DNA from: an uncultured virus (IMG/VR IMGVR_UViG_3300024999_000085)
Taxonomy: Duplodnaviria; Heunggongvirae; Uroviricota; Caudoviricetes
DNA length: 64,000 nucleotides
Virus record (IMG/VR): IMGVR_UViG_3300024999_000085
Reading direction: 5' to 3' (one strand)
Shown: piece by piece, positions 1,293 through 60,552 of the stretch
Layout of the letters: every line of letters starts with the position of its first letter
Position numbering within the stretch: the stretch's first letter is position 1
Made by a program: the position numbers and the translations under genes
The notes under the pieces: generated by a model
Seen by the model: the letters and a program-made list of their open reading frames with translations, nothing else
Databases searched by the model: none
What the model was told of the DNA's origin: nothing

Positions 1293-2217
1293 TATTCACC
1301 TCATATAAATTATTTTTTATTAAATAATATTTAACTACATTTGGTTCAATATTATATATTTTTGCTATACTATAATATGTGTAACCTTGATTGTAATATT
1401 TTATAAATTCTTGCTCTTTATCTTTATAATTTCCTGGTTGTTTATTTTTATATTCTTTATATATCCATTTATATTTATATTCATCAAATGGACATTCTCC
1501 TATATAATTTAAAAATTCTTTTATTTTATGATGTGGAATATATATTATGTATTGATTATTTTTTTCAGTCTTTTTTAATTCTGCATTAAATATATTTAGT
1601 TGTGGTATTATAATACTATTTAATTCATTATATGTAAAACAATTAGTTGATAATTTTACATATTGACTATATTTTGAACAATTTAAACTTCCATCACCTA
1701 TATACCAAACTAAACAAGTTAATGGTGTTAATATCAAATAATTTGGTATTATTTTTATATTATTTTTATACCATATCTTTTTTAATTTTGTAAATGATAT
1801 ATTTAATTGTGTTCTTGCTGTATACCTAGTGTATACTTTATTAGTTCTTTTATCATAACATGAGTATTCTTTAATCCCTTCTTTTGTTGAATAATTGTTA
1901 AAATAATTATAAACATATTCTACATGATTTTTAATTTTTGAAGTATAAGAAAATTGAGAATTACCATGTTTTTGTTTTGTTAAATGACCATCTCCTAATA
2001 AAGCACCATTAATTACTTCTAATTGTATATCTGTTAATATTATTTCTTTATTTGTAAGCCATTCTTTTGGTTTCTTAGAACTAATATTATAATCTTTAAA
2101 ATTTCTTCTAATTGTATCTGTACTGCAATTTAATTGCTTTGCAATTGATTCTTGTGACATATTTTTATTAAAATACATATCTAACAATAATTCTTTATTT
2201 AAAATTATTTTATTTAT
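1279..2217 (-). CDS. free-standing LAGLIDADG homing endonuclease with terminal HTH-like segments
   Basis: INGALLGDGHL and WYIGDGSL motifs; probable ATA start at 2217, 7 nt after AAGGAGGTG (ORF track starts at 2187). Confidence 0.85.
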   Translation of the reverse strand: MNKIILNKELLLDMYFNKNMSQESIAKQLNCSTDTIRRNFKDYNISSKKPKEWLTNKEIILTDIQLEVINGALLGDGHLTKQKHGNSQFSYTSKIKNHVEYVYNYFNNYSTKEGIKEYSCYDKRTNKVYTRYTARTQLNISFTKLKKIWYKNNIKIIPNYLILTPLTCLVWYIGDGSLNCSKYSQYVKLSTNCFTYNELNSIIIPQLNIFNAELKKTEKNNQYIIYIPHHKIKEFLNYIGECPFDEYKYKWIYKEYKNKQPGNYKDKEQEFIKYYNQGYTYYSIAKIYNIEPNVVKYYLIKNNLYEVNSVEK

Positions 2218-2269
2218 AAAATAACACCTCCTTCATGCGATCTCCAAGAGAATCTTTACTATTATTCAT
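2210..2269 (-). pseudogene. thg1: orphan 5' fragment of thg1 (MNNSKDSLGDRMKEVLFYK*)
   Basis: AGGAGG RBS plus ATG; DSLGDRMK is the typical Thg1 N-terminus. Confidence 0.75.
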
Positions 2270-2596
2270 TATTATTTTCCTCCTCTAATACCCATTTTAA
2301 TATTAATTTTTGCTGTTCTAATCCATATATTCTAATATCTCTATTTTGAATATAATCACAATTTTTATTTATTCTTTCTCCTCTTTGTTTTTGATATTCC
2401 AAACATTCTATATTTCATTTTGCAGTTTTTTAATTTCATTATTAATATCACTTGCTTTATAAAGAATACTTAATTCATTTTTCATATATTATTCTCCTTT
2501 TCCAAATCATAACCAAACAAGAAATTTATCATGATTTTTCAATTTTTAAAATGCTGTAAACCCTTATAAATCAAGGGTTTGTGGGATCGTTAAAAA

Positions 2597-2995
2597 TCAA
2601 AAATGTATCGATAATGAATCTCCGTCACCAAAATGATTTGAAACTAAAAATTTATATCCTAATTCATTAAAGAATTTTTCTAATGATAATTTTGTTTTTG
2701 GTTTGATAAACATTTTATTAATTCCTTCAATATCTCTTGGGTATATCATAATAATTTTACAAGCATTCCAATACTTATAAACAGAAGAAGTACTATGTTT
2801 TTTATCAAGATATTTTACCACATATTCGTTTAATTCTTTATATAATTCTAATATTACATAATAAAAATTATTCTTTAAAGTTTGATTTTTTAACCATTTC
2901 ATATGTTCATTATAAATATAATTCCATAGGTTAATATCTTTTAAGTTTATAATCCTAATTAAATCTTTTTGTGATATAAAATGTATTCTTTTCAT
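2597..2995 (-). CDS. hypothetical protein
   Basis: 132 aa ORF, GGGAGG RBS. Confidence 0.7.
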   Translation of the reverse strand: MKRIHFISQKDLIRIINLKDINLWNYIYNEHMKWLKNQTLKNNFYYVILELYKELNEYVVKYLDKKHSTSSVYKYWNACKIIMIYPRDIEGINKMFIKPKTKLSLEKFFNELGYKFLVSNHFGDGDSLSIHF

Positions 2996-3012
2996 ATTAA
3001 CATCCTCCCAAT

Positions 3013-3417
3013 TTATTTACATTTAATAAAAACCCATTTCATACTTACATCTTCGACAAACCCATTCTTTAAATAAAATTTTCTATGCAAATCTGTCATC
3101 TCACTACCTACAATCAACGTCTTGCCTTTTGGCATTCTTTTATATATCTCAGTTAATATACTACTTCCTATACCTTGCTGTCTATATTCTGGATTTACTT
3201 CTAATAAATAAATCATCCATATCTCAGGATATAGGTGTTTTAATCTCCAATACTTACTAGTCTTAGTATTATACCATGCAAAACCTAATAGTGTATTGTC
3301 TTTATAATAACCTATTCCTTGTCCTAGTTTTGCATTTTCATATAGTATTATTTCTTCTTGATTCCAATATTGTCGTATGTATTGTTTAAATTGTTCATTA
3401 GTTAATTGTTTGAACAT
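3013..3417 (-). CDS. GNAT-family N-acetyltransferase
   Basis: VNPEYRQQGIGSSIL acetyl-CoA motif A and FYLKNGF motif. Confidence 0.85.
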   Translation of the reverse strand: MFKQLTNEQFKQYIRQYWNQEEIILYENAKLGQGIGYYKDNTLLGFAWYNTKTSKYWRLKHLYPEIWMIYLLEVNPEYRQQGIGSSILTEIYKRMPKGKTLIVGSEMTDLHRKFYLKNGFVEDVSMKWVFIKCK

Positions 3418-3622
3418 ATTAAAAACATTTTAATCCTAATACTGCTAATCCATAAAACATTCCAAATGTCAACATCCAAGGCCAAACTTTTGATGATACA
3501 TTAAATAACTTTTTATATAATTTAGATGTTTTAATTGGTTTAGATGATAAATTGATTGGTTTGAAATATAGTTTGTTATCAATAGTTATTCTCATAGTTT
3601 AATCATTCTCCTTTTTATAATA

Positions 3623-4426: not shown

Positions 4427-4642
4427 CTACCCAACACTAATATAATCTACTTTATCCATATTAATAATTACTTTATATGTTTTATTATTATCAAATAATA
4501 TTAGTCCACCTTTAGATATTTCCTTATAAAACTTATCAAATATTTCAGGAAATTGGCTTTTATCTGTATACTCATCATACCAAATTTGATGTTGTATAGG
4601 TTTTTCACTACCAGAATATTTAATATTGACTAATAGATTCAT
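4427..4642 (-). CDS. hypothetical protein (similar to 17258..17470)
   Basis: RBS; both begin MNL(L/I)xxxxYxxG and end xNMxxVxxI. Confidence 0.7.
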   Translation of the reverse strand: MNLLVNIKYSGSEKPIQHQIWYDEYTDKSQFPEIFDKFYKEISKGGLILFDNNKTYKVIINMDKVDYISVG

Positions 4643-4701
4643 AATTAAAATCTCCTTTCTATATTATTTCTTATTTCCATAATTTATTATCTAACTAATA
4701 A

Positions 4702-5622
4702 CTATTCTATCTTATATCTTACTATATGTAAATTATTATTTTTATATTCTTTTAAATCTTTTTTGAATTTATCAACTGCTAAATCTTTTCCTTTTGCCTC
4801 AATCATAACATCAAATTTATAATCTTCCGACAATTTCAAAAAATCCCTACAATAATTAAAATCAATCATATTTGCATGACTTCTAAACTCTTTATTTGAC
4901 TTAGGAGAACTTATATGAATTTTTGGTATTTTATCACCCCAAGTATCAAATATAGACTTTAAATCTAATTCTAAATCATCATTATTACAGTACATATGGT
5001 GTATATCAAGCACAATCTTCAATCCAGTATATTTATGTATCTCCATAACATCATTTATAGTATAACTTTTATCATCGTTTTCTAATACAATATGATTCCG
5101 TAATTGCTCTGGTAACTTATTAAATACTCTAATAAATCGCTTCATTGCTTCTGTTTTATCACCATACACACCACCTACATGAATGATTATATTAAAATCA
5201 TCATCATTTCCTAATCGCATAGAATTCAGTATATTGTAATGATAGATTAAATCCTTTACTGAAGACTTAACAACATCTTTATTAGGTGAATTTATATTAA
5301 CTATTTGTGAAGGATGCATACTACAACGTATCCCATTATCTTTACATAATTCACCTATACGTTTTAAATCATGTCTAATCCAAGACAAATAATCTATACC
5401 TTTAGATATTTCATGAGTAGCAAATGGAACAATGTCTGAACTTAATCTAAACATTTTAATATCATCAATAATACACTGTCTGATTGTTCTTTCTGTTTCT
5501 TTTATATTGTGCATTACAGTTTGATGTAATCTATTTTCACTAAAATTAGCAAGTCTAAATGTTTTATATTTAGTATTACACTTTAAAGACATACACGCAA
5601 ATCCAATATTACGAATTGACAT
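4702..5622 (-). CDS. uvsE: UV DNA damage repair endonuclease
   Basis: IGFAC, FRLSSD, SMHP, IHVGG, LENDD, DIHH, KIHISS, SHA and MIEAK motifs. Confidence 0.92.
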   Translation of the reverse strand: MSIRNIGFACMSLKCNTKYKTFRLANFSENRLHQTVMHNIKETERTIRQCIIDDIKMFRLSSDIVPFATHEISKGIDYLSWIRHDLKRIGELCKDNGIRCSMHPSQIVNINSPNKDVVKSSVKDLIYHYNILNSMRLGNDDDFNIIIHVGGVYGDKTEAMKRFIRVFNKLPEQLRNHIVLENDDKSYTINDVMEIHKYTGLKIVLDIHHMYCNNDDLELDLKSIFDTWGDKIPKIHISSPKSNKEFRSHANMIDFNYCRDFLKLSEDYKFDVMIEAKGKDLAVDKFKKDLKEYKNNNLHIVRYKIE

Positions 5623-5709
5623 ATAAATTGCCTCCGATTAATTAAGTTTATAAATACATAATAAACTATATCAATTGTAATGTCAACATTTATTTTTATA
5701 TTTTAATGA

Positions 5710-6174
5710 TTATTTTATAATAATAACCTTTACATCTCTCCTGCCAAATTCTAATGCTTCTTTTTTAGTATCCATATATAAATCAATCCTATTACCTTTA
5801 ATTGCTCCACCAGTATCTAATGCTATCGCTTCACCGTAATCTTCTATGTATAACCTAGTTTTTAACGGTATTATTCTAGGGTCTACTGAAACAGTACCTC
5901 TACTAACTTGTGTACCTGATTTAGTAATTCCTTTATATGTACCTTCTTCAACTGATTTTGTATAAGCCGATGCTTCCATTATCATTATATGATTATTATT
6001 TTCTTCTTTTTTAATTATATTAAAATTAATTGATTCTTCTACTAAGGCAATAGGTTTATTCTCAATTAATTGATTATGTTGTTTATTAACCCTTTGACTA
6101 TAAGATAACTCTGTAGAAAACATAAGTACAAAAAATAAAGTGAATGTTACTACGATTATATTTTTCATCATCAA
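5710..6174 (-). CDS. secreted 3D-domain (cell-wall binding / lytic transglycosylase-like) protein
   Basis: Signal-like N-terminus; ASAYT, VDPRIIP, ALDTGGAIKGNRIDLY. Confidence 0.9.
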   Translation of the reverse strand: MMMKNIIVVTFTLFFVLMFSTELSYSQRVNKQHNQLIENKPIALVEESINFNIIKKEENNNHIMIMEASAYTKSVEEGTYKGITKSGTQVSRGTVSVDPRIIPLKTRLYIEDYGEAIALDTGGAIKGNRIDLYMDTKKEALEFGRRDVKVIIIK

Positions 6175-6236
6175 TTCCCTTCTAATTTATTTATACTTTA
6201 AAAGTTAATAAAAGTCTATTTGGTCATGATTTTATA

Positions 6237-6280
6237 ACTACATATAGTATATTATAAAACTGCTACATACTATATGTAGT
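6237..6280. promoter_or_regulatory. tandem NrdR-box-like pair
   Basis: ACTACATATAGT (6237) and ACTATATGTAGT (6269), 32 bp apart. Confidence 0.5.
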
Positions 6281-6293
6281 GTTTATATTTTTA

Positions 6294-7490
6294 TCATGCT
6301 AACATATGCAATCCTTTATCTATTTCTGCACCAGTTATAATTGAATTTCCAATATTAACACCTGCATTATCAATAGTATCACCAACATACTTTAATCCAG
6401 TTTTTAAATTATTAGCTATATTAGTATTAGCAATTGCAACATTATCAATAGATTCACTAATAGATTTTCCATGATTGTTAATGGCATTTATTTTATTATC
6501 TCTGTATTTCATATCTTCATAAATTTTATCAATATTTTGAATTTGAGACAAAATATTATAATCTATACTTTTAAATTTAAATGGTTCTCCTCCATTAATA
6601 TAAGGTATCACGGAATCATCATTTATTTCTGTATTTTTAAATCTAGATGCATATAAAATAGCATTACTTTTAGAATTAAAATATTGATTATCTATACTAC
6701 CATAAGAAGTTATAGTATGATTATTTTTAGTATTAGGATAAAAAGCATAACATGGTATTTGATTAGTAGAAATATTTAAAAGTTTGTAATTAGAAAAATA
6801 TAAAATATTGCTATCTAAATAATTCACAAACTCTATATTTGCATCAGGATAATATTCTGAAATTAATTCCAATAATAATTCAACACTATTAAAATTATAA
6901 TTACAAATACATTTAATTTCTTCTTCCTCTGTGATTACAAATGGCAAGTATCTACCTTTGTCTTCAGAAATAAACATTTGTTTATATTTATTGTGAACAT
7001 GCATATTTGGTGATTTAATAATACTATTAATATTGACTTCAATATGTTTTTGTAAATCAATACCTTCTATATTTAATAAATCTATATTGATATGCCTAGT
7101 CCCATCTTTTATTTTTGGTAACATTGGCATGAATTTATCTAAAGAAGATTGGAATTTATTTATTACAGCAAAATATAATTTATTATTTATATAACACCAT
7201 TCTAAATCTTCTTTAAGAAAATTGTCATTACTAAGGCTTAAAAAATCATTAATATGGTTTATATCTTTAATAGAATAATCAAATATTGTTGCAAAATTAT
7301 AATCAAAAACAGGATAAGTTAATATTACTTTATTATATAAAATAAATTTTTCTAGTGCAATATTTTCAGACCAAACAGTTTCTTCAAAACATAATCTTAT
7401 AATATCATATAATTTATTCATATTCTTTAAATTAAGTTTTTTTATAAAATATTCTTCTTTATTATAATTAATATATAAATAATAATTCAT
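6294..7490 (-). CDS. hypothetical protein
   Basis: 398 aa ORF, GGAGG RBS. Confidence 0.75.
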   Translation of the reverse strand: MNYYLYINYNKEEYFIKKLNLKNMNKLYDIIRLCFEETVWSENIALEKFILYNKVILTYPVFDYNFATIFDYSIKDINHINDFLSLSNDNFLKEDLEWCYINNKLYFAVINKFQSSLDKFMPMLPKIKDGTRHINIDLLNIEGIDLQKHIEVNINSIIKSPNMHVHNKYKQMFISEDKGRYLPFVITEEEEIKCICNYNFNSVELLLELISEYYPDANIEFVNYLDSNILYFSNYKLLNISTNQIPCYAFYPNTKNNHTITSYGSIDNQYFNSKSNAILYASRFKNTEINDDSVIPYINGGEPFKFKSIDYNILSQIQNIDKIYEDMKYRDNKINAINNHGKSISESIDNVAIANTNIANNLKTGLKYVGDTIDNAGVNIGNSIITGAEIDKGLHMLA

Positions 7491-25541: not shown

Positions 25542-25766
25542 TTAATATTTATTCAATATACCATGATTACTAATTGCATATCCACACCAAGGACAATAAT
25601 CAATACTTGTAATATATTTTGCTTCATTTTTATAACTTTTTAAACTTACACTTGCACCATTACCATTTTTACTCATACCAAAAAAGTTATCATTAATAAC
25701 ATATGCAAATTGCTCACACATACTAACCATTATATTAGTTTTAACATCATATTTACATTTATTCAT
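25542..25766 (-). CDS. small Cys-motif protein
   Basis: IDYCPWCG; AAGGAGG RBS directly after the ribozyme. Confidence 0.75.
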   Translation of the reverse strand: MNKCKYDVKTNIMVSMCEQFAYVINDNFFGMSKNGNGASVSLKSYKNEAKYITSIDYCPWCGYAISNHGILNKY

Positions 25767-25898: not shown

Positions 25899-26111
25899 TT
25901 AGTCTTGTAAACTTTTTTGCTTTAAAACATAACTAAAACTATATTGGTTGTTTTTACTTTCAACATTTCCAGTTGTATAACATCCACTACTGTCTAGTTT
26001 TTGTTTTACTTTCTGAGAATTTTCTTTTGTGTTAAAGTTTGCCATATTATTATGAATACCTATTGATATTGTTCCTTTATTGTCTCTGATGACTTTTGGA
26101 GTATTAATCAT
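25899..26111 (-). CDS. hypothetical protein
   Basis: GGAGG RBS, TTGACA/TATAAT promoter. Confidence 0.7.
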   Translation of the reverse strand: MINTPKVIRDNKGTISIGIHNNMANFNTKENSQKVKQKLDSSGCYTTGNVESKNNQYSFSYVLKQKSLQD

Positions 26112-26537
26112 TATACATACCTCCATTTATTTAATTTCTAATTCATTATAGCACACCTTAATACTAATGTCAACAATTATTTTTACTTTCTTACTTACAT
26201 ATTATAATGAATTGAAGTTTTTATTCCATAATTTACCTATTTAATATTCTTCCTTTCCCAATCTGCATCGTCACTAATCGGCTCTCCGCAAAATGATTAC
26301 ACATACTAATCATTTTACTAGTCTCAATATCGTATTTACATTTTTGCATGTCAATTTATTTCCTCCTCACCTTTAATTTATAATAAACAATTGATCCTGA
26401 CAACAATACAACCAAAGATACAATAACAAATAATTTTAACATTCTATATCTCCTTTCAATCCAATCTCACCTCTTCCGCATACTTATATTATATCAAATA
26501 TGCAGAGTTGATAGACTAGATATAATTTGTGTTGCTC

Positions 26538-32378: not shown

Positions 32379-32922
32379 TATGTCGGATACTCCTTCCTAT
32401 TAGACTTAGATTATATATGTATTTTCGTTAATTTAATAGTATATGTATTTATGTTTTTGTATGTACTTTATTCTTTGCAGGATTGATTTTAAGACGGTTT
32501 AATTTGTTTGTCTATGTGTTTTTAACCTTTTTCTAATATGTGGCCTTAAATCGCTTTATATAAAGAGGTTACAAACAAAAAACCACTAACAAGTATTATA
32601 AAAAATACTTCGTTAATGGCTCATAGGCTCTAAAGTTTATTCAGTTTTATACTATGACTATTTCCTTCTTACATCTTTTACAATAGACTGCTATATTCTC
32701 AACTTTAGCACCTACCAAAAGTTTAAACAACTTCTGCCTACAATGAGGACATAAAAACCATTCAAATGTCATTATTTGTTATACTCCTTTACTGCATTTA
32801 TTACACTCTCTAACTGCTCAAATCCAAAACTCATACAAACAAAATTTTGTCTAGCTGATATTTCCATTGAATAAATATTACCTTCCCTATCCCATACAAG
32901 AGTAGTATAATAATTAAACTTT

Positions 32923-33547
32923 TTAAAGTCCTCCTGCTCTTTTTTTGGTTCTTTCCTGCATCCAACTTTTTAAAAATGGCATTTCTTTAACGAATTCATA
33001 AGGCAGTGCGTAACGTGCTAGACGGTTACTTTCATAATACTGCTGAGATTGTACGCCGTCAAGGACATTGATATTAACTTTTGTTTCTTCAAAGGGTGTA
33101 TATCCTTCTTTTGAGCAATTACATAAAGGCTCTTTTGTACTGTGAACATGTAAACCTTTGTTAACTACTTCCATACTTTCAAAATTACAATTTAATTCCT
33201 CATTGACAAGTTTTAATATGTTTTCTTTGTTATACTCAAAATGAAACTTGGTAATATGTGCTAATTTACTCGAAGTGTTATTCCTGGTATCCCATGTATG
33301 ATCATCATAAAAGCAACAATCAACATGACCGACAGTGTTTAAACCTTTGGCATAATTTGGTGTTTTATTGGTATTCTGAAATCCATTTATTTCTATGTAA
33401 ATCAAGTAACATCTCATTGAATACCTTCTTAATGGTTTGTTCTGTTATTACTGATTCATTGCTTAATACTGTAGTAACTAGATCATCATGAGTAAAACCA
33501 CTCAATAGATCGTCTAGAATATGAAATGGAAATTTATTATTATTCAT
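32923..33547 (-). pseudogene. probable out-of-frame fusion of two gene fragments
   Basis: 33365..33547 has an RBS; overlapping 32923..33417 lacks one. Confidence 0.45.
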
Positions 33548-33573
33548 TTTGTCACCTCCTTTTAATTCCTGTT

Positions 33574-33641
33574 TAACAGGTTAAGCGGAAAGGCTTTTCA
33601 GCCTCGCCGGAATTCTCGGCCTATGCTCCCTAGCCCTGTTA
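33574..33641 (-). ncRNA. twister-sister-like ribozyme (3-way junction)
   Basis: P1 TAACAGG/CCTGTTA, GCTAG, P2 GGA/TCC, P4 GCCG[AGAATTC]CGGC, P5 AGGC/GCCT, GCTTAA. Confidence 0.65.
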
Positions 33642-34127
33642 TTTTATAAAATTATGTCCCCAAGTTTCCTTATCAGTAACATCAACAATTTTATGATAAT
33701 ATTTATTTGTTCCTTTATCGTGCATATACTGAGAAGTGTAAAAACCTGTTAACATCTCGGACATGCAAAACATTTCTATACCATCTATTGTACACCATTT
33801 TATGGGTGGTAGTACATTAAGCATATCCTCAAAAGTCTCTTCTGTTATTTCTTTCAATGGTTCTCCTAACAAATGTTTCCTTTCTAATTTAACAAATTCC
33901 TCATATGTCATAATTTCATATTTTTTACCCTGTGCCTGTTTTAAATATATTTTGAATTGCTCAGTGTCAGGATAATTATTACAATGACTGCCCAATGTTT
34001 CAATGTCTTCTTTATTTGATTCAATGGCTCTTACTAATGTTTCTTCCGCTTGCTCTTGGCTATTTGAAAAATTATAAATATTAAGTCCTACAGTATCAAC
34101 CACACATAAACTATTATTTTGTAACAT
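33639..34127 (-). CDS. DUF1419-like protein
   Basis: EITEETFEDMLNVLPP...FCMSEMLTG. Confidence 0.6.
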   Translation of the reverse strand: MLQNNSLCVVDTVGLNIYNFSNSQEQAEETLVRAIESNKEDIETLGSHCNNYPDTEQFKIYLKQAQGKKYEIMTYEEFVKLERKHLLGEPLKEITEETFEDMLNVLPPIKWCTIDGIEMFCMSEMLTGFYTSQYMHDKGTNKYYHKIVDVTDKETWGHNFIK

Positions 34128-35058
34128 TATTATCAATCTCCTTTAAATTTATATTTTTATTTGGTGGTTCGCTCCCTCAACAATTATAATTATATAGTAT
34201 ATCAATACTAAAGTCAAGCAAATTGATATAATTATTTTTACATTATCAAATAAAAATAAGAGGTTTTACCCTCTTATAATTAATCTACATTATTAACCGC
34301 TAAATTATAACTTACATGATCTGAATATGTCCAGTTTCTTTTGCTCCCTTCTTTTTAATTTTTCTTCTAGTGTTAATTTTGACATAATTTCCTCCTTTGA
34401 ATTTAATTTTTTAGATACATTTGTATTATAACATATTATAAATATAATTGTAAATGCTTTTGAGAAAATAAAAAAGAGTGCTTTTTAGGCACTCAGTTAA
34501 CTTATAGATACAATTCTAAAACCGTCTTTCCTTCTGTTGATTCTAAAAGTTATTTCTCCATCTTCCTCTACATCTATTTTTAGTTTTATTGATTTACCGT
34601 TTACTACCTTTCTAATACTTTATAATCTACGTTGTTAATTTTCTTTTTTACATATGCTAACAATTTTAATCTTTTTACCTCATTTTTACCTCAGTTAATT
34701 CATTATCAAATTTCATTTAAGTATAACTTCCTATATCATTATAAATTCGTTATTTGATTTTAACTAAGTAAATATCAAGATAATTATAATCTCCTCCATG
34801 CTTTTTCTGCAACGATTCAACTATTCTGTTTAGTGGATATTGTTTATTAAATATGTCTGAATACTCTGTTTTATCATTGCCTACTGTATAAACTATAGTT
34901 ATCATTAAACAACCTCCCTCAAAAATATGTATTAACTACCTGCCAATAAATACAATATAGACTATAAATATAATATTGTCAAGGGTTAATTTATAGATTG
35001 TTATAGGCAAAAAGAAAGAGCTTAAAGGCTCAGTTAACTTATATAACATTATTTTAAT

Positions 35059-44942: not shown

Positions 44943-46750
44943 GTGTATTATCTCCCTTCGGCTTATAGCCGTTTATTATTTTAATTCTACCTGTTATCAC
45001 CTGTTATAACAATATACAAGCACAATTAAGATAATATTTAATGTTGCCTTGCTAACAATTAACACATAGTAACCATTTAAGGTATTGCTTCCATATTTAG
45101 ACTATTTACTTTAACTCTGCAATCCCGCCCGCGAGTGTTTGGGAAGTTTGTTTCCAGTAAATTGCTAATGATGGCTATTCTAGTTAATTGTTAGCTGGTT
45201 TCTATGTCTGGTTTGACTCTGTTAAACTTTTAAATCGGTAAGCTGTTATTACTGTTATTCCCTACTACATAAGATTGTATTAAATGTAGATGTCTATTAT
45301 TATTTTTCTGATTCTGTCAACCTTCTCACCTCCTGCACACTGTTATAAAAAACCAGTGTATTGAGTAAGGCCAACTTGTTATATTACCATTGCAACAAAT
45401 AGACAAAAATAATAGTAAATACAATAGAACGAATATAATAATTAAGTATCTTATGTAGTCAGAATTAAAGGTTTCTGTGTACCTTTTTGTAAGTTGTTAT
45501 ATGTCCTTACAGTAACATTTTTAAGGTGTTATATGTCCTTAATACGTTTATACTCTCTATAATATCCCTCCTTTTTATTTTAACCCTAGATTCAAGGCTC
45601 TAGTAACCTTTTAGGCTCATTTAACTTGCCTATAGCTTTAACGATTTTTTACGGTTATCGTCCAACGTATTCAATATATTATTTTTTGTTTCTATAAAAT
45701 ACCTCCTATTTATTTGATTTTTAACTCCCCATAGTACCTTCGCCATAGTAAATATATGTATTATGCAAAGGATTTTTACAAGTATTGCTGTTAAGGTGAA
45801 GCATACCTACCCTTCTGATTGTTCCATTAAAAGGAATTCCGTTTTAGGCTCTGAGGGTTAGAGACTACCAGTTAATATAAATGTTAGAACGAATAAAGTA
45901 TATAGCCGAAGGACTATTTTATATAGTTGTGTGACAACTGGATTTATTTATTGTTGTTTGTTTCCGTTTTGAAGTTAACTTATTCTATCATAATTAAATT
46001 AGTATGTCAATACTATTTAGATAATTATTTTTACTTTCTTGCTTAAATTTTTTACTGAGATAATAACTTTCAATACTTTTAATACTCCCAGTGACCTTAA
46101 TCAGTTTAATTTTCCTTACATTCTATCTAAAATCAATTATAAAACCTCTGACAGTCCCATACAGCAAATGCAGGTATAATGACACCTAATTCAATTTTTA
46201 ACTGCATTGTGGCCGATTCTGAGAAGGTGAATTTATAGATATGAGGTAAATGAGCAAAAGAATAACCGCTAACAATGGCGGTTAAACTTGTTTATTGACT
46301 TCTTTTTCCTCTAAATACCATTTTAATATTGTTTCGTATGGCAGTTTATTTAGTTCCTCTAATGTATATCTAGTTTCTTTAAGTAAATATTTTAATATTT
46401 TATCCCTTTTAATTTCCATGTGTTCAGCCTCCCATAAAATTAATTTTTAATACTATGTATTTACTATTTATTACCCTGCAACCTTTCCCTTAATTCCTTC
46501 TCACTTATTCTCCCAGCAACAAACAATTTAATTAAATTTAGATTAGGCACTTGATCAACTCCTTTCTGACTGGCTGAGATTGTTATAAATTTGATTGGCT
46601 ATGTAGTAAATACAGTATAGCAAATTAGTTTTCATTTGTCTACAATTATTTTTATAATTTTGTGTCTGATGTGGTGGTGCTGTTATAGCTGTTATAGATT
46701 ATTTACAGAAATAAAAAGTGGAAAAATATATAAAAACTAGTTTTATTCAG

Positions 46751-59092: not shown

Positions 59093-59588
59093 TGTGTTGA
59101 CCTCCTATTAAAATTATATAGATCTTCCCTTCCCTAAAGTATAACAGAATGTAGATTGATTGTATATAGATTTTAGGTAAATATTTTAAGAAAATTATAT
59201 TTATTTTCTATTAGTTGTATCGTGTTAATTAGTGCTGAATAGGTTTATATATTGTTAGGATTGGATTTAAGGGTAGTTTGTTTGATTTAGGTATTAGATT
59301 ACCTATTTTATTTTTAAAGTGTTTATGTGGGGTTTATATGAAGGTGTACTAGTTTATTAATACAGTGTGTCAGTGATGGTGTAAATAAGTATATGATAGT
59401 TTAATAATATTGTTTTAATTGGATTGGTGTATAAATTGCAGGAATAGGCTTTATTCGTGTTAGGATTAGATATAAGATGTTTTATTATGATTTAGGTATA
59501 ATATGAAGTGTTAGAGATGAATTAAGATTGTTTGGTATTTGATTATGTGTTTATGTATTGGGTATCTAGTAGCAAGGAATAAATATAG

Positions 59589-59795
59589 TGGTAATAGGTT
59601 GGTATTGTGTATTGATAATATAGATAGTATATCAGATAGCATATAGGTATTATATATTTAGTAGTATGATATGTTAAAAGTGGTAACAAGGTTAGTAATA
59701 TTGTTAGTAGTATTGTGGTAATATGATACTGATATAAACGGTAGCATAGTATGGTAGCATAGAAGTAATATTATATAGTGTGATATGGTAGCATT
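59589..59795 (+). repeat. dispersed GGTA(A/G)(C/T)A motif array 2
   Basis: copies near 59590, 59682, 59717, 59740, 59753, 59787. Confidence 0.5.
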
Positions 59796-60369
59796 GTATA
59801 GTATATAGTATATGTATATAGATAGTATAGCTTTGTTTGGAGTGTTGTATAGTTGTTAGTGTATTTATATGTGTTAGTGATGCTTAGTGTTAGCTGTAGC
59901 TGTGGTGGTATGTATAGATAGATTGTATAGAGGTTATAGAGGTTATAGATTGTATAGAGGTTATATTATAGGTGTATTAGGTAGATAGTACACTTATAAA
60001 TATGTGGTGTATAGTGTTAGATAGTATAGATATAGATATTATAGATATATTGCTAGTATGTTTATGTATTTTATAGATAGTATTATAATTTGTTTATGGT
60101 ATTGGTATTATTTTATATGTGGTTTGTAATCCCAATTTTGATGTATAATTTATATGTAAAGTGGGGAGTTGATGGTTAAATTGTGAGGAATTTAGGGTTA
60201 AAGTGGGGAAAATATCTATATCGTAATATTGAGATATATGGATATATAGATATATAGATAAGAAATGTTCTTTGTTAGGAAATTTTACTAGATAGGAATG
60301 ATTCTTATTTAGGATTTATTCTTAGGTGTGATTTATTATTATTTAATATGGCTGGTTGATGGTTGGTTA

Positions 60370-60552
60370 GATAGTTAATATGATTAATAGTTAAGCAGGT
60401 TAATAGTTAACTATGTAAAGTATTTTTTTAAAGTAGATAGTTTGATTATACAATATAGTTAAGTATGTTAATTGTTTAAATAGTTAATTATTAAGTAGGT
60501 AAATAGTTAAGGTAATAAATAGTTAAGTAGGTTAAGTATATTAATAGTTCAA
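60370..60552 (+). repeat. ATAGTTAA motif array
   Basis: about 8-9 copies of ATAGTT(A/C/T) in roughly 180 bp. Confidence 0.7.

Follow-up and report, generated by a model that had tools for sequence, protein, structure and literature searches.

A divergent twister-sister-like element in an intergenic gap of a large groundwater phage

A twister-sister-like element of 68 nt lies on the minus strand (33641-33574) between two small open reading frames (ORFs) of a large groundwater phage, in a 64,000-nucleotide stretch of the uncultured virus IMGVR_UViG_3300024999_000085 (Caudoviricetes), hereafter referred to as the window. The locus raises the question of whether this RNA is a self-cleaving ribozyme and, if so, how it stands to the twister-sister class. 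We consider it probable (roughly three chances in four), judging from its sequence and predicted fold, that the element is a three-way-junction self-cleaving twister-sister ribozyme of a divergent subclass, in which the internal loop L1 is kept, the SL4 loop is AGAAUUC in place of UGCAAGY, and P2 is GGAG/UUCC. It is best filed as a divergent subclass, and not as a plain member of the family, because it falls short of the threshold of the Rfam family RF02681 and differs at three SL4 positions, while its fold, its catalytic loop and a chain of homology agree with accepted members.

Fold and position of the element

Unguided minimum-free-energy (MFE) folding of the element yielded a three-way junction (-26.7 kcal/mol; z -2.54; 2 of 200 shuffles fold as well), with the helix order P1, L1, P2, junction, P4-SL4 and P5. 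This order, together with the covariation described below, upholds the three-way twister-sister topology proposed in the original prediction, and the motifs quoted there are indeed present (GCUAG at 33634-33630, AGAAUUC at 33616-33610 and GCUUA at 33586-33582). A permissive descriptor (P1 ≥5 bp, GCNAG, P2 ≥3 bp, GCUNA) identified a single site in the window, versus 0.05 per shuffled window. The parts of the element, all on the minus strand and given from the 5' end, are the following:

33635..33641 (minus strand): P1 5' strand, UAACAGG, of a 7-bp P1 (MFE fold)
33630..33634 (minus strand): L1 5' strand, GCUAG, the counterpart of four-way G5 C6 A7 A8 G9
33626..33629 (minus strand): P2 5' strand, GGAG, of a 4-bp P2 (MFE fold)
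33621..33625 (minus strand): P2-P4 junction, CAUAG, variable in length and sequence among relatives
33606..33620 (minus strand): P4 stem, GCCG/CGGC, with the 7-nt SL4 loop AGAAUUC (33616-33610), the divergent docking loop
33591..33604 (minus strand): P5 hairpin, AGGCU/AGCCU, with a GAAA loop (MFE fold)
33587..33590 (minus strand): P2 3' strand, UUCC (MFE fold)
33581..33586 (minus strand): L1 3' strand, GCUUAA, in which GCUUA is 33586-33582
33574..33580 (minus strand): P1 3' strand, CCUGUUA (MFE fold)
33568..33580 (minus strand): alternative hairpin, CCUGU-UAA-ACAGG, in which the P1 3' strand pairs with a repeat, further downstream, of the P1 5' strand
33545..33567 (minus strand): A-rich spacer, AGGAGG (33560-33555) and the ATG (33547-33545) of a 60-aa ORF; the spacer and ribosome-binding site (RBS) travel with the ribozyme

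L1 forms an asymmetric internal loop, with GCUAG opposite GCUUAA, and the scissile bond is predicted, by homology to C62-A63 of the four-way form, between U33583 and A33582. Variants in the length of the P5 loop were seen in metagenome runs. The first three bases of the element (33641-33639) are the UAA stop codon of a 165-aa ORF (33639..34136), and its end lies 26 nt before the start of the 60-aa ORF, so that it fills the gap between a stop codon and the next RBS, as had been described.

The catalytic loop and the link to accepted members

In the four-way twister-sister ribozyme, L1 consists of G5 C6 A7 A8 G9 opposite G59 C60 U61 C62|A63 U64 (PMC5660989). The conserved nucleotides of this loop, G5 C6 (N7) A8 G9 and G59 C60 U61 (N62) A63, are all present in the element as GCUAG and GCUUA. 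The C at position -1 of the cleavage step is absent, the element having U33583; among its 43 distinct relatives this position is U in 18 and C in 25. In the four-way ribozyme, A7U behaves comparably to the wild type, and activity remains pronounced with C62U (PMC5660989), and the three-way Rfam member URS0000D6A998 has an L1 of GCUAG/GCUCAA together with a canonical SL4 (supplementary file 2 of PMC11620745). The original prediction had counted GCUAG, GCUUA and the SL4 loop as three departures from the reference sequences. The first two can no longer be regarded as such, because both are tolerated in the published four-way assays and GCUAG also occurs naturally; the SL4 loop is a real departure.

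A covariance model built from variant sequences (R3), searched against whole contigs, recovered tandem copies in four of them (four in G006, three in G008, five in G014 and three in G015). GCUAG and GCUCAA are repeated letter for letter in every tandem copy compared, including copies found by covariance model and not by DNA patterns, and such constancy is expected if catalysis is under selection. One of these copies, G015:5101-5169, is the core of URS0000D6A998 and is scored by both models (62.7 bits on RF02681 and 40 bits on R3), thereby linking the variant group to accepted twister-sister members. It lies ~450 nt upstream of a copy with the loop UGAAAGC (RF02681, 38.4 bits) and ~830 nt upstream of a copy with AGAAUCC (not reported by Rfam), and it shares its P1 and L1 with these tandem variant neighbours.

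Homologues and covariation

Searches with patterns and covariance models over viral, metagenome and bacterial contigs yielded 43 distinct relatives. A metagenome scan in which the SL4 loop and both L1 strands were fixed gave 100 matches, and a single-sequence model (R1) recognised 25 true copies among 99 of these loci (L254 was left out). A scan of IMG/VR fixing only L1 and P2, with SL4 free, gave 17 matches, 15 of them with a P1 helix and hence true. Applied to 185,579 species genomes, the same L1 and P2 pattern matched 39 times, and four of these matches were true, all from Clostridia-type metagenome-assembled genomes (MAGs): one from a Tissierellia MAG, one from an uncultured Butyrivibrio and two from a Halanaerobiales MAG; in the other 35 matches P1 was of 2 bp or less. 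The share of true matches was therefore higher in viral contigs (15/17) than in bacterial genomes (4/39), and covariance-model scores separated true copies (32 bits or more) from chance pattern matches (21.6 bits or less). The first IMG/VR scan, with all three motifs of the window element, gave 27 matches, none of them with the fold, and a search with R1 of the window and of contigs G001-G005 gave no further copy.

None of the seven IMG/VR relatives of the upstream 165-aa protein carries the element. In the locus of the closest of them (L001, 82% identity) the two genes abut, so the element appears to be an optional insert. The flanks of these relatives hold Pistol, Hammerhead_II and Twister-P5 ribozymes, and this is therefore a ribozyme-rich kind of phage. 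GC-rich, structured-looking stretches follow the homologous upstream gene in two relatives (L002:2475-2570 and L005:2484-2580), the second including the tRNA T-arm-like sequence GGTTCGACTCC; Rfam at the gathering threshold reported no match on either stretch.

The original prediction had named covariation among homologues as a check, and this proved favourable. In our larger alignment (A4; 47 matches, 34 distinct rows), 96.4% of the cells pair and 16 of the 22 pairs change on both sides, with 136 such cells. None of 500 shuffles reached any of the observed values, and sliding the partners by 1-3 columns reduced pairing to 40.6-56.0%. Changes on both sides were found in all seven pairs of P1, all five of P5 and two of the four of P4, and P2 is nearly invariant. 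A smaller alignment (A2) gave 13 of 22 pairs changed on both sides, again with 0/500 shuffles.

The SL4 docking loop and the P2 classes

The SL4 consensus consists of a G-C closing pair followed by U30 G31 N32 A33 A34 G35 Y36 (PMC5660989). The element has the closing pair, G31, A33 and Y36, and U30, A34 and G35 are replaced with A, U and U, respectively. The 43 distinct sequences distribute as follows by P2 class and SL4 loop, in numbers of distinct sequences:

P2 GCCC/CGGC: UGCAAGC 1, AGAAUGC 1
P2 GGA(G/A)/UUCC: AGAAUUC 16, AGAAUCC 12, UGAAACC 3, AGAAGUC 2
P2 GGA(G/A)/UUCC, continued: AGCAUCC 1 (with CUCC as the P2 3' strand), and one row with its loop unparsed
P2 GUUC/UAAC: UGAAAUU 3, GGAAGUU 3

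The loop types found in relatives are graded (UGCAAGC, UGAAAGC, UGAAACC, AGAAUGC, AGAAUCC and AGAAUUC). Loop positions 1 and 5 are A:U in 30 distinct sequences, U:A in seven, G:G in three and A:G in two, with no other combination, and this covariation supports the earlier suggestion that the U-A pair of the loop has been swapped. Position 6, that of G35, is G only with a GCC-type P2; with GGA/UCC it is C or U, and with GUU/AAC it is U. This pattern looks like co-variation of a tertiary contact, which we advance as a hypothesis from the aligned loops; the three P2/SL4 classes may simply be three clades, and the fact that Rfam members with a P2 of GUA/UAC also carry the canonical loop (PMC11620745) counts against such a contact. 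Copies with AGAAUYC were the commonest type in the viral and metagenome contig scans and were mostly unreported by Rfam.

Two other interpretations of the loop were discarded. Pairing of the U at position 6 with a junction A, in the manner of G27-C14 of the three-way crystal form, was rejected because the junctions of relatives (UUC, AU, A) share no fitting base. Use of the GAAUUC palindrome as a kissing-dimer site is unlikely, given that many relatives have the non-palindromic AGAAUCC.

Tandem arrays and mosaic junctions

Among the 33 distinct sequence contexts considered, an upstream stop codon could be placed in 31, from 17 nt before to 8 nt after the start of the element, and in several of these it is the UAG inside GCUAG. 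An RBS and start codon were located in 27 of the 33, 17-48 nt past the end of the element. In an IMG/VR array (G014; contig L321/L332, ~4500-7330), seven ribozymes, five of them of twister-sister type and two Hammerhead_II, alternate with six single ORFs, and another (G006; L312, ~1450-3510) holds, within 2 kb, four copies of twister-sister type together with two matches of twister-P1-like kind (57 and 54 bits; gathering 67.2). Every intergenic gap of these two arrays holds a ribozyme. Where variant and canonical copies share an array, the gaps that they occupy are equivalent. The G014 array has a tRNA gene (L321:225-296, minus strand; 74.3 bits) on the opposite strand, ~800 nt upstream of its first ribozyme.

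In many copies the P1 5' strand is repeated directly after the P1 3' strand, so that a hairpin is possible: CCUGU/ACAGG in the window, and CCUGC/GCAGG, GGCU/AGCC and GGUGG/CACC in relatives. Of 27 distinct flanks, 16 have an adjacent hairpin of at least 5 bp, versus 11% of the control tails taken at those loci. In several lineages this hairpin varies together with P1; it is absent from the AUCAA-type lineage. A looser hairpin test, with pairing permitted at any place within 28 nt, had no discriminating power, since CCU pairs by chance with the purine-rich RBS, and the adjacent-hairpin test with in-locus controls was used instead.

The window-type unit, with its spacer and RBS, marks mosaic junctions, since it was found between eight upstream and seven downstream sequence clusters in 14 combinations. 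In four metagenome runs (X1, X3, X5 and X6), the depth on the element was about two- to three-fold that over most flanks, consistent with copies in several contexts, and contig joints or changes of context occurred at the borders of the element (33402>33574, 33541>33635 and 33643). In one metagenome form, 33542-33634 is replaced by 15 other letters.

Weighing the interpretation

A number of observations weigh against a self-cleaving twister-sister ribozyme at this locus. The Rfam twister-sister model RF02681 (81 positions; gathering score 34 bits) gave no match on the element, either in the whole window at the gathering threshold or on 401 nt and 80 nt at E up to 10, and most of the AGAAUYC copies submitted to Rfam likewise went unreported: among 18 variant loci, only the variant element of L262 was reported, the match of L259 being to a separate UGAAAGC copy. 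U30, A34 and G35, which are highly conserved or structurally used in SL4, all differ in the element; G35 is described as "highly conserved" and makes a tertiary contact with P2 (PMC5660989), a contact that must be replaced otherwise in the variant. In the minimal LINE-1 ribozyme, C10U, which matches the U at -1, has only partial activity (PMC11620745), and some conserved RNAs near ribozymes did not cleave when tested, according to a review (PMC6765202). The alignments were fitted to the structure of the model, few distinct P1 types are represented and many rows are close kin; the search patterns fix L1, and in some scans SL4 or P2, so that conservation there is partly built in.

Taken alone, the negative Rfam result would argue against the original prediction, for which a match to this model had been proposed as a check. 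The check failed for the element itself and succeeded for several relatives, with scores of 35.7-40.3 bits: 37.9 bits for L262 (AGAAUCC), 35.7 for L314:1040 (AGCAUCC), 40.3 for L319:1499 (AGAAUGC) and 39.9 for L321:1086 (UGAAAUU), the last only on a short stretch. As some variant copies pass the RF02681 threshold, the variant group grades into the accepted family, with the window element at its far end. RF02681 found nothing on five whole related contigs, in a comparison in which four of the 14 control genomes gave a signal below the cut-off.

The most serious alternative, which we nevertheless consider unlikely, is a twister-sister-derived RNA that no longer cleaves and serves as an intercistronic stabiliser, a protein-binding site or a conserved linker for cassette recombination. 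It would account for the lack of an RF02681 report and for the differences at SL4 positions used for docking in the crystal structure, and the 14 cluster combinations and the metagenome breakpoints at the borders fit a recombination linker with or without cleavage. However, L1, which is relevant only for catalysis, is constant in all the tandem copies compared, including those not selected by pattern; the SL4 changes are patterned and not decayed, positions 1 and 5 covarying and the last two bases following the P2 class; and variant and canonical copies share equivalent gaps of the same arrays.

It is improbable that the element acts as an intrinsic terminator, or that it is a generic pair of stabilising hairpins that closes the upstream gene. 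The GC-rich P5 hairpin is followed by UUU and the element begins at a stop codon, but there are just three U residues after P5 and they are paired in P2. Moreover, what relatives conserve is not a U-tract but the two unpaired strands of L1 together with the 7-nt loop of SL4, and an ORF with its own RBS follows 26 nt on, in a row of ~115 ORFs on the same strand. Chance resemblance without function can practically be set aside: the fold z is modest (-2.54) and the descriptor expectation of 0.05 per window is not negligible over many windows, but there are 43 distinct homologues, enriched in viral contigs, and the compensatory changes that they carry in three of the four helices are decisive.

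Proposed action of the ribozyme

If the element is a self-cleaving twister-sister ribozyme, its position suggests that it probably cuts a long phage message between the two genes. During synthesis of the long minus-strand transcript, P1, P2, P4 and P5 would form and SL4 would dock on L1. The 2'-OH of U33583 would then attack the phosphate before A33582, giving a 2',3'-cyclic phosphate and a 5'-OH, and cleavage would separate the mRNA of the 165-aa ORF, with the folded ribozyme as its 3' end, from that of the 60-aa ORF. The freed P1 3' strand could refold with the adjacent ACAGG into a 5'-terminal hairpin ahead of the unpaired A-rich spacer and AGGAGG, so that the downstream message would carry a 5'-OH hairpin ahead of an open RBS. 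The processing of polycistronic messages has been suggested, and not shown, for bacterial hammerhead and twister ribozymes (PMC6765202). We infer by analogy the same role for the element, and likewise effects on the stability and translation of both messages.

A broader reading, which is possible but to which we would give somewhat poorer than even odds, joins these features. There may be at least three natural and interchangeable SL4 docking solutions on the P2/L1 helix, in which the last two loop bases are matched to P2 (GC with GCC/GGC, YC with GGA/UCC and UU with GUU/AAC) and the loop U-A is replaceable by A-U, A-G or G-G. The succession of stop codon, ribozyme, hairpin and RBS might then be a portable intercistronic unit that releases each gene of an array as a separate message and, being the only conserved stretch between variable genes, serves as a crossover point for the shuffling of gene cassettes.

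Comparison with known systems

The closest known system is the three-way twister-sister ribozyme represented by URS0000D6A998. It shares with the element the order of helices (P1, L1, P2, junction, P4-SL4, P5), the L1 strands save for the U at -1, a 7-nt SL4 with a G-C closing pair and with G and A at loop positions 2 and 4, respectively, and a phage-like intergenic setting. The element differs from it in SL4 (AGAAUUC and not UGCAAGC), P2 (GGAG/UUCC and not GCC(C)/(C)GGC) and the -1 base (U and not C). The four-way form (PMC5660989; examples L043, L102 and L152) shares the counterparts of G5, C6, A8, G9, G59, C60, U61 and A63 and the G-C pair closing SL4. Unlike the four-way form, the element has no P3 hairpin, and it differs by A7 to U, U64 to A and C62 to U and by A, U and U at SL4 positions U30, A34 and G35. 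Model R3 gave no match to the four-way examples at E up to 0.01.

The internal loop of the LINE-1 ribozyme would be GCUAG/GCUCAA, as deduced from the differences stated in PMC11620745 (U for A7 and A for U64), and is the same as that of the element save for the -1 base. The LINE-1 and OR4K15 'twister sister-like' minimal ribozymes are two-stem fragments of human DNA without a docking loop, whereas the element keeps a conserved SL4 and P5. They are slow (about 0.11 per min), and the LINE-1 ribozyme, with an L1 of the same type, cleaves without SL4 (PMC11620745).

Weak matches to RAGATH-36 (RF03104; 25-32 bits, gathering 70) overlap relatives of the GUUC/UAAC type (L321:1103-1187, L312:1133-1233 and L332:1517-1573), and none was found on the window element. 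The cmscan consensus of this motif has a hairpin with a 7-nt loop, a second hairpin and UAAC-GCUUA, that is, the P2 3' strand followed by the L1 3' strand with U at -1, but the model does not have the 5' half (P1, GCUAG) in that order. RAGATH-36 may be a relative or a rearranged form of twister-sister. No prior description of the SL4 variant reported here was found in the full-text literature; the 2015 discovery paper (Weinberg et al.) and its alignments lay outside that search and may contain such sequences.

Other features of the window

The window consists of a row of ~115 small ORFs, nearly all on the minus strand, with phage-type genes for an endonuclease, a LAGLIDADG homing endonuclease, a peptidase and a tRNA-His guanylyltransferase-like protein, and its sequence is present in groundwater metagenome DNA runs. 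A BLAST search of 32900-34200 against GenBank phages gave no match. The Rfam scan of the whole window identified a Pistol ribozyme (RF02679; 25791-25861, minus strand; 55.2 bits versus a gathering score of 34.5), the only family over threshold and the only credible match at E up to 5. A second ribozyme class in the same transcription region, as had been claimed, is therefore present on the same strand. ORFs 25899..26126 and 25542..25766 flank the Pistol ribozyme, which lies in the 132 nt between them, on the strand of the twister-sister variant and 7.7 kb beyond it; the two occupy the same kind of intercistronic position.

The tRNA-His guanylyltransferase-like gene (phrog_4717, E 2e-74) adjoins the LAGLIDADG homing-endonuclease gene (501-1142 and 1279-2187, both on the minus strand), in a window in which a tRNA search found no tRNA genes. 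Two stretches of ~1.4 kb (44943-46294 and 59093-60540) are free of coding-strand ORFs of 50 aa or more, and many further gaps of 200-600 nt occur elsewhere in the gene row; no Rfam family and no tRNA were found in these ORF-poor stretches and gaps.

Significance

The reference model of a small ribozyme class appears to miss a whole branch, and censuses of twister-sister may consequently be too low. This branch alters, in a patterned way, nucleotides used for tertiary docking, and would thus provide naturally occurring swaps with which to study how the active site is kept together. The array setting makes an old question testable, that of the role of self-cleaving ribozymes in phages: one ribozyme per gap, the start at a stop codon, a hairpin and RBS after the cut, and shuffled junctions would each predict defined RNA ends and measurable effects on stability and translation.
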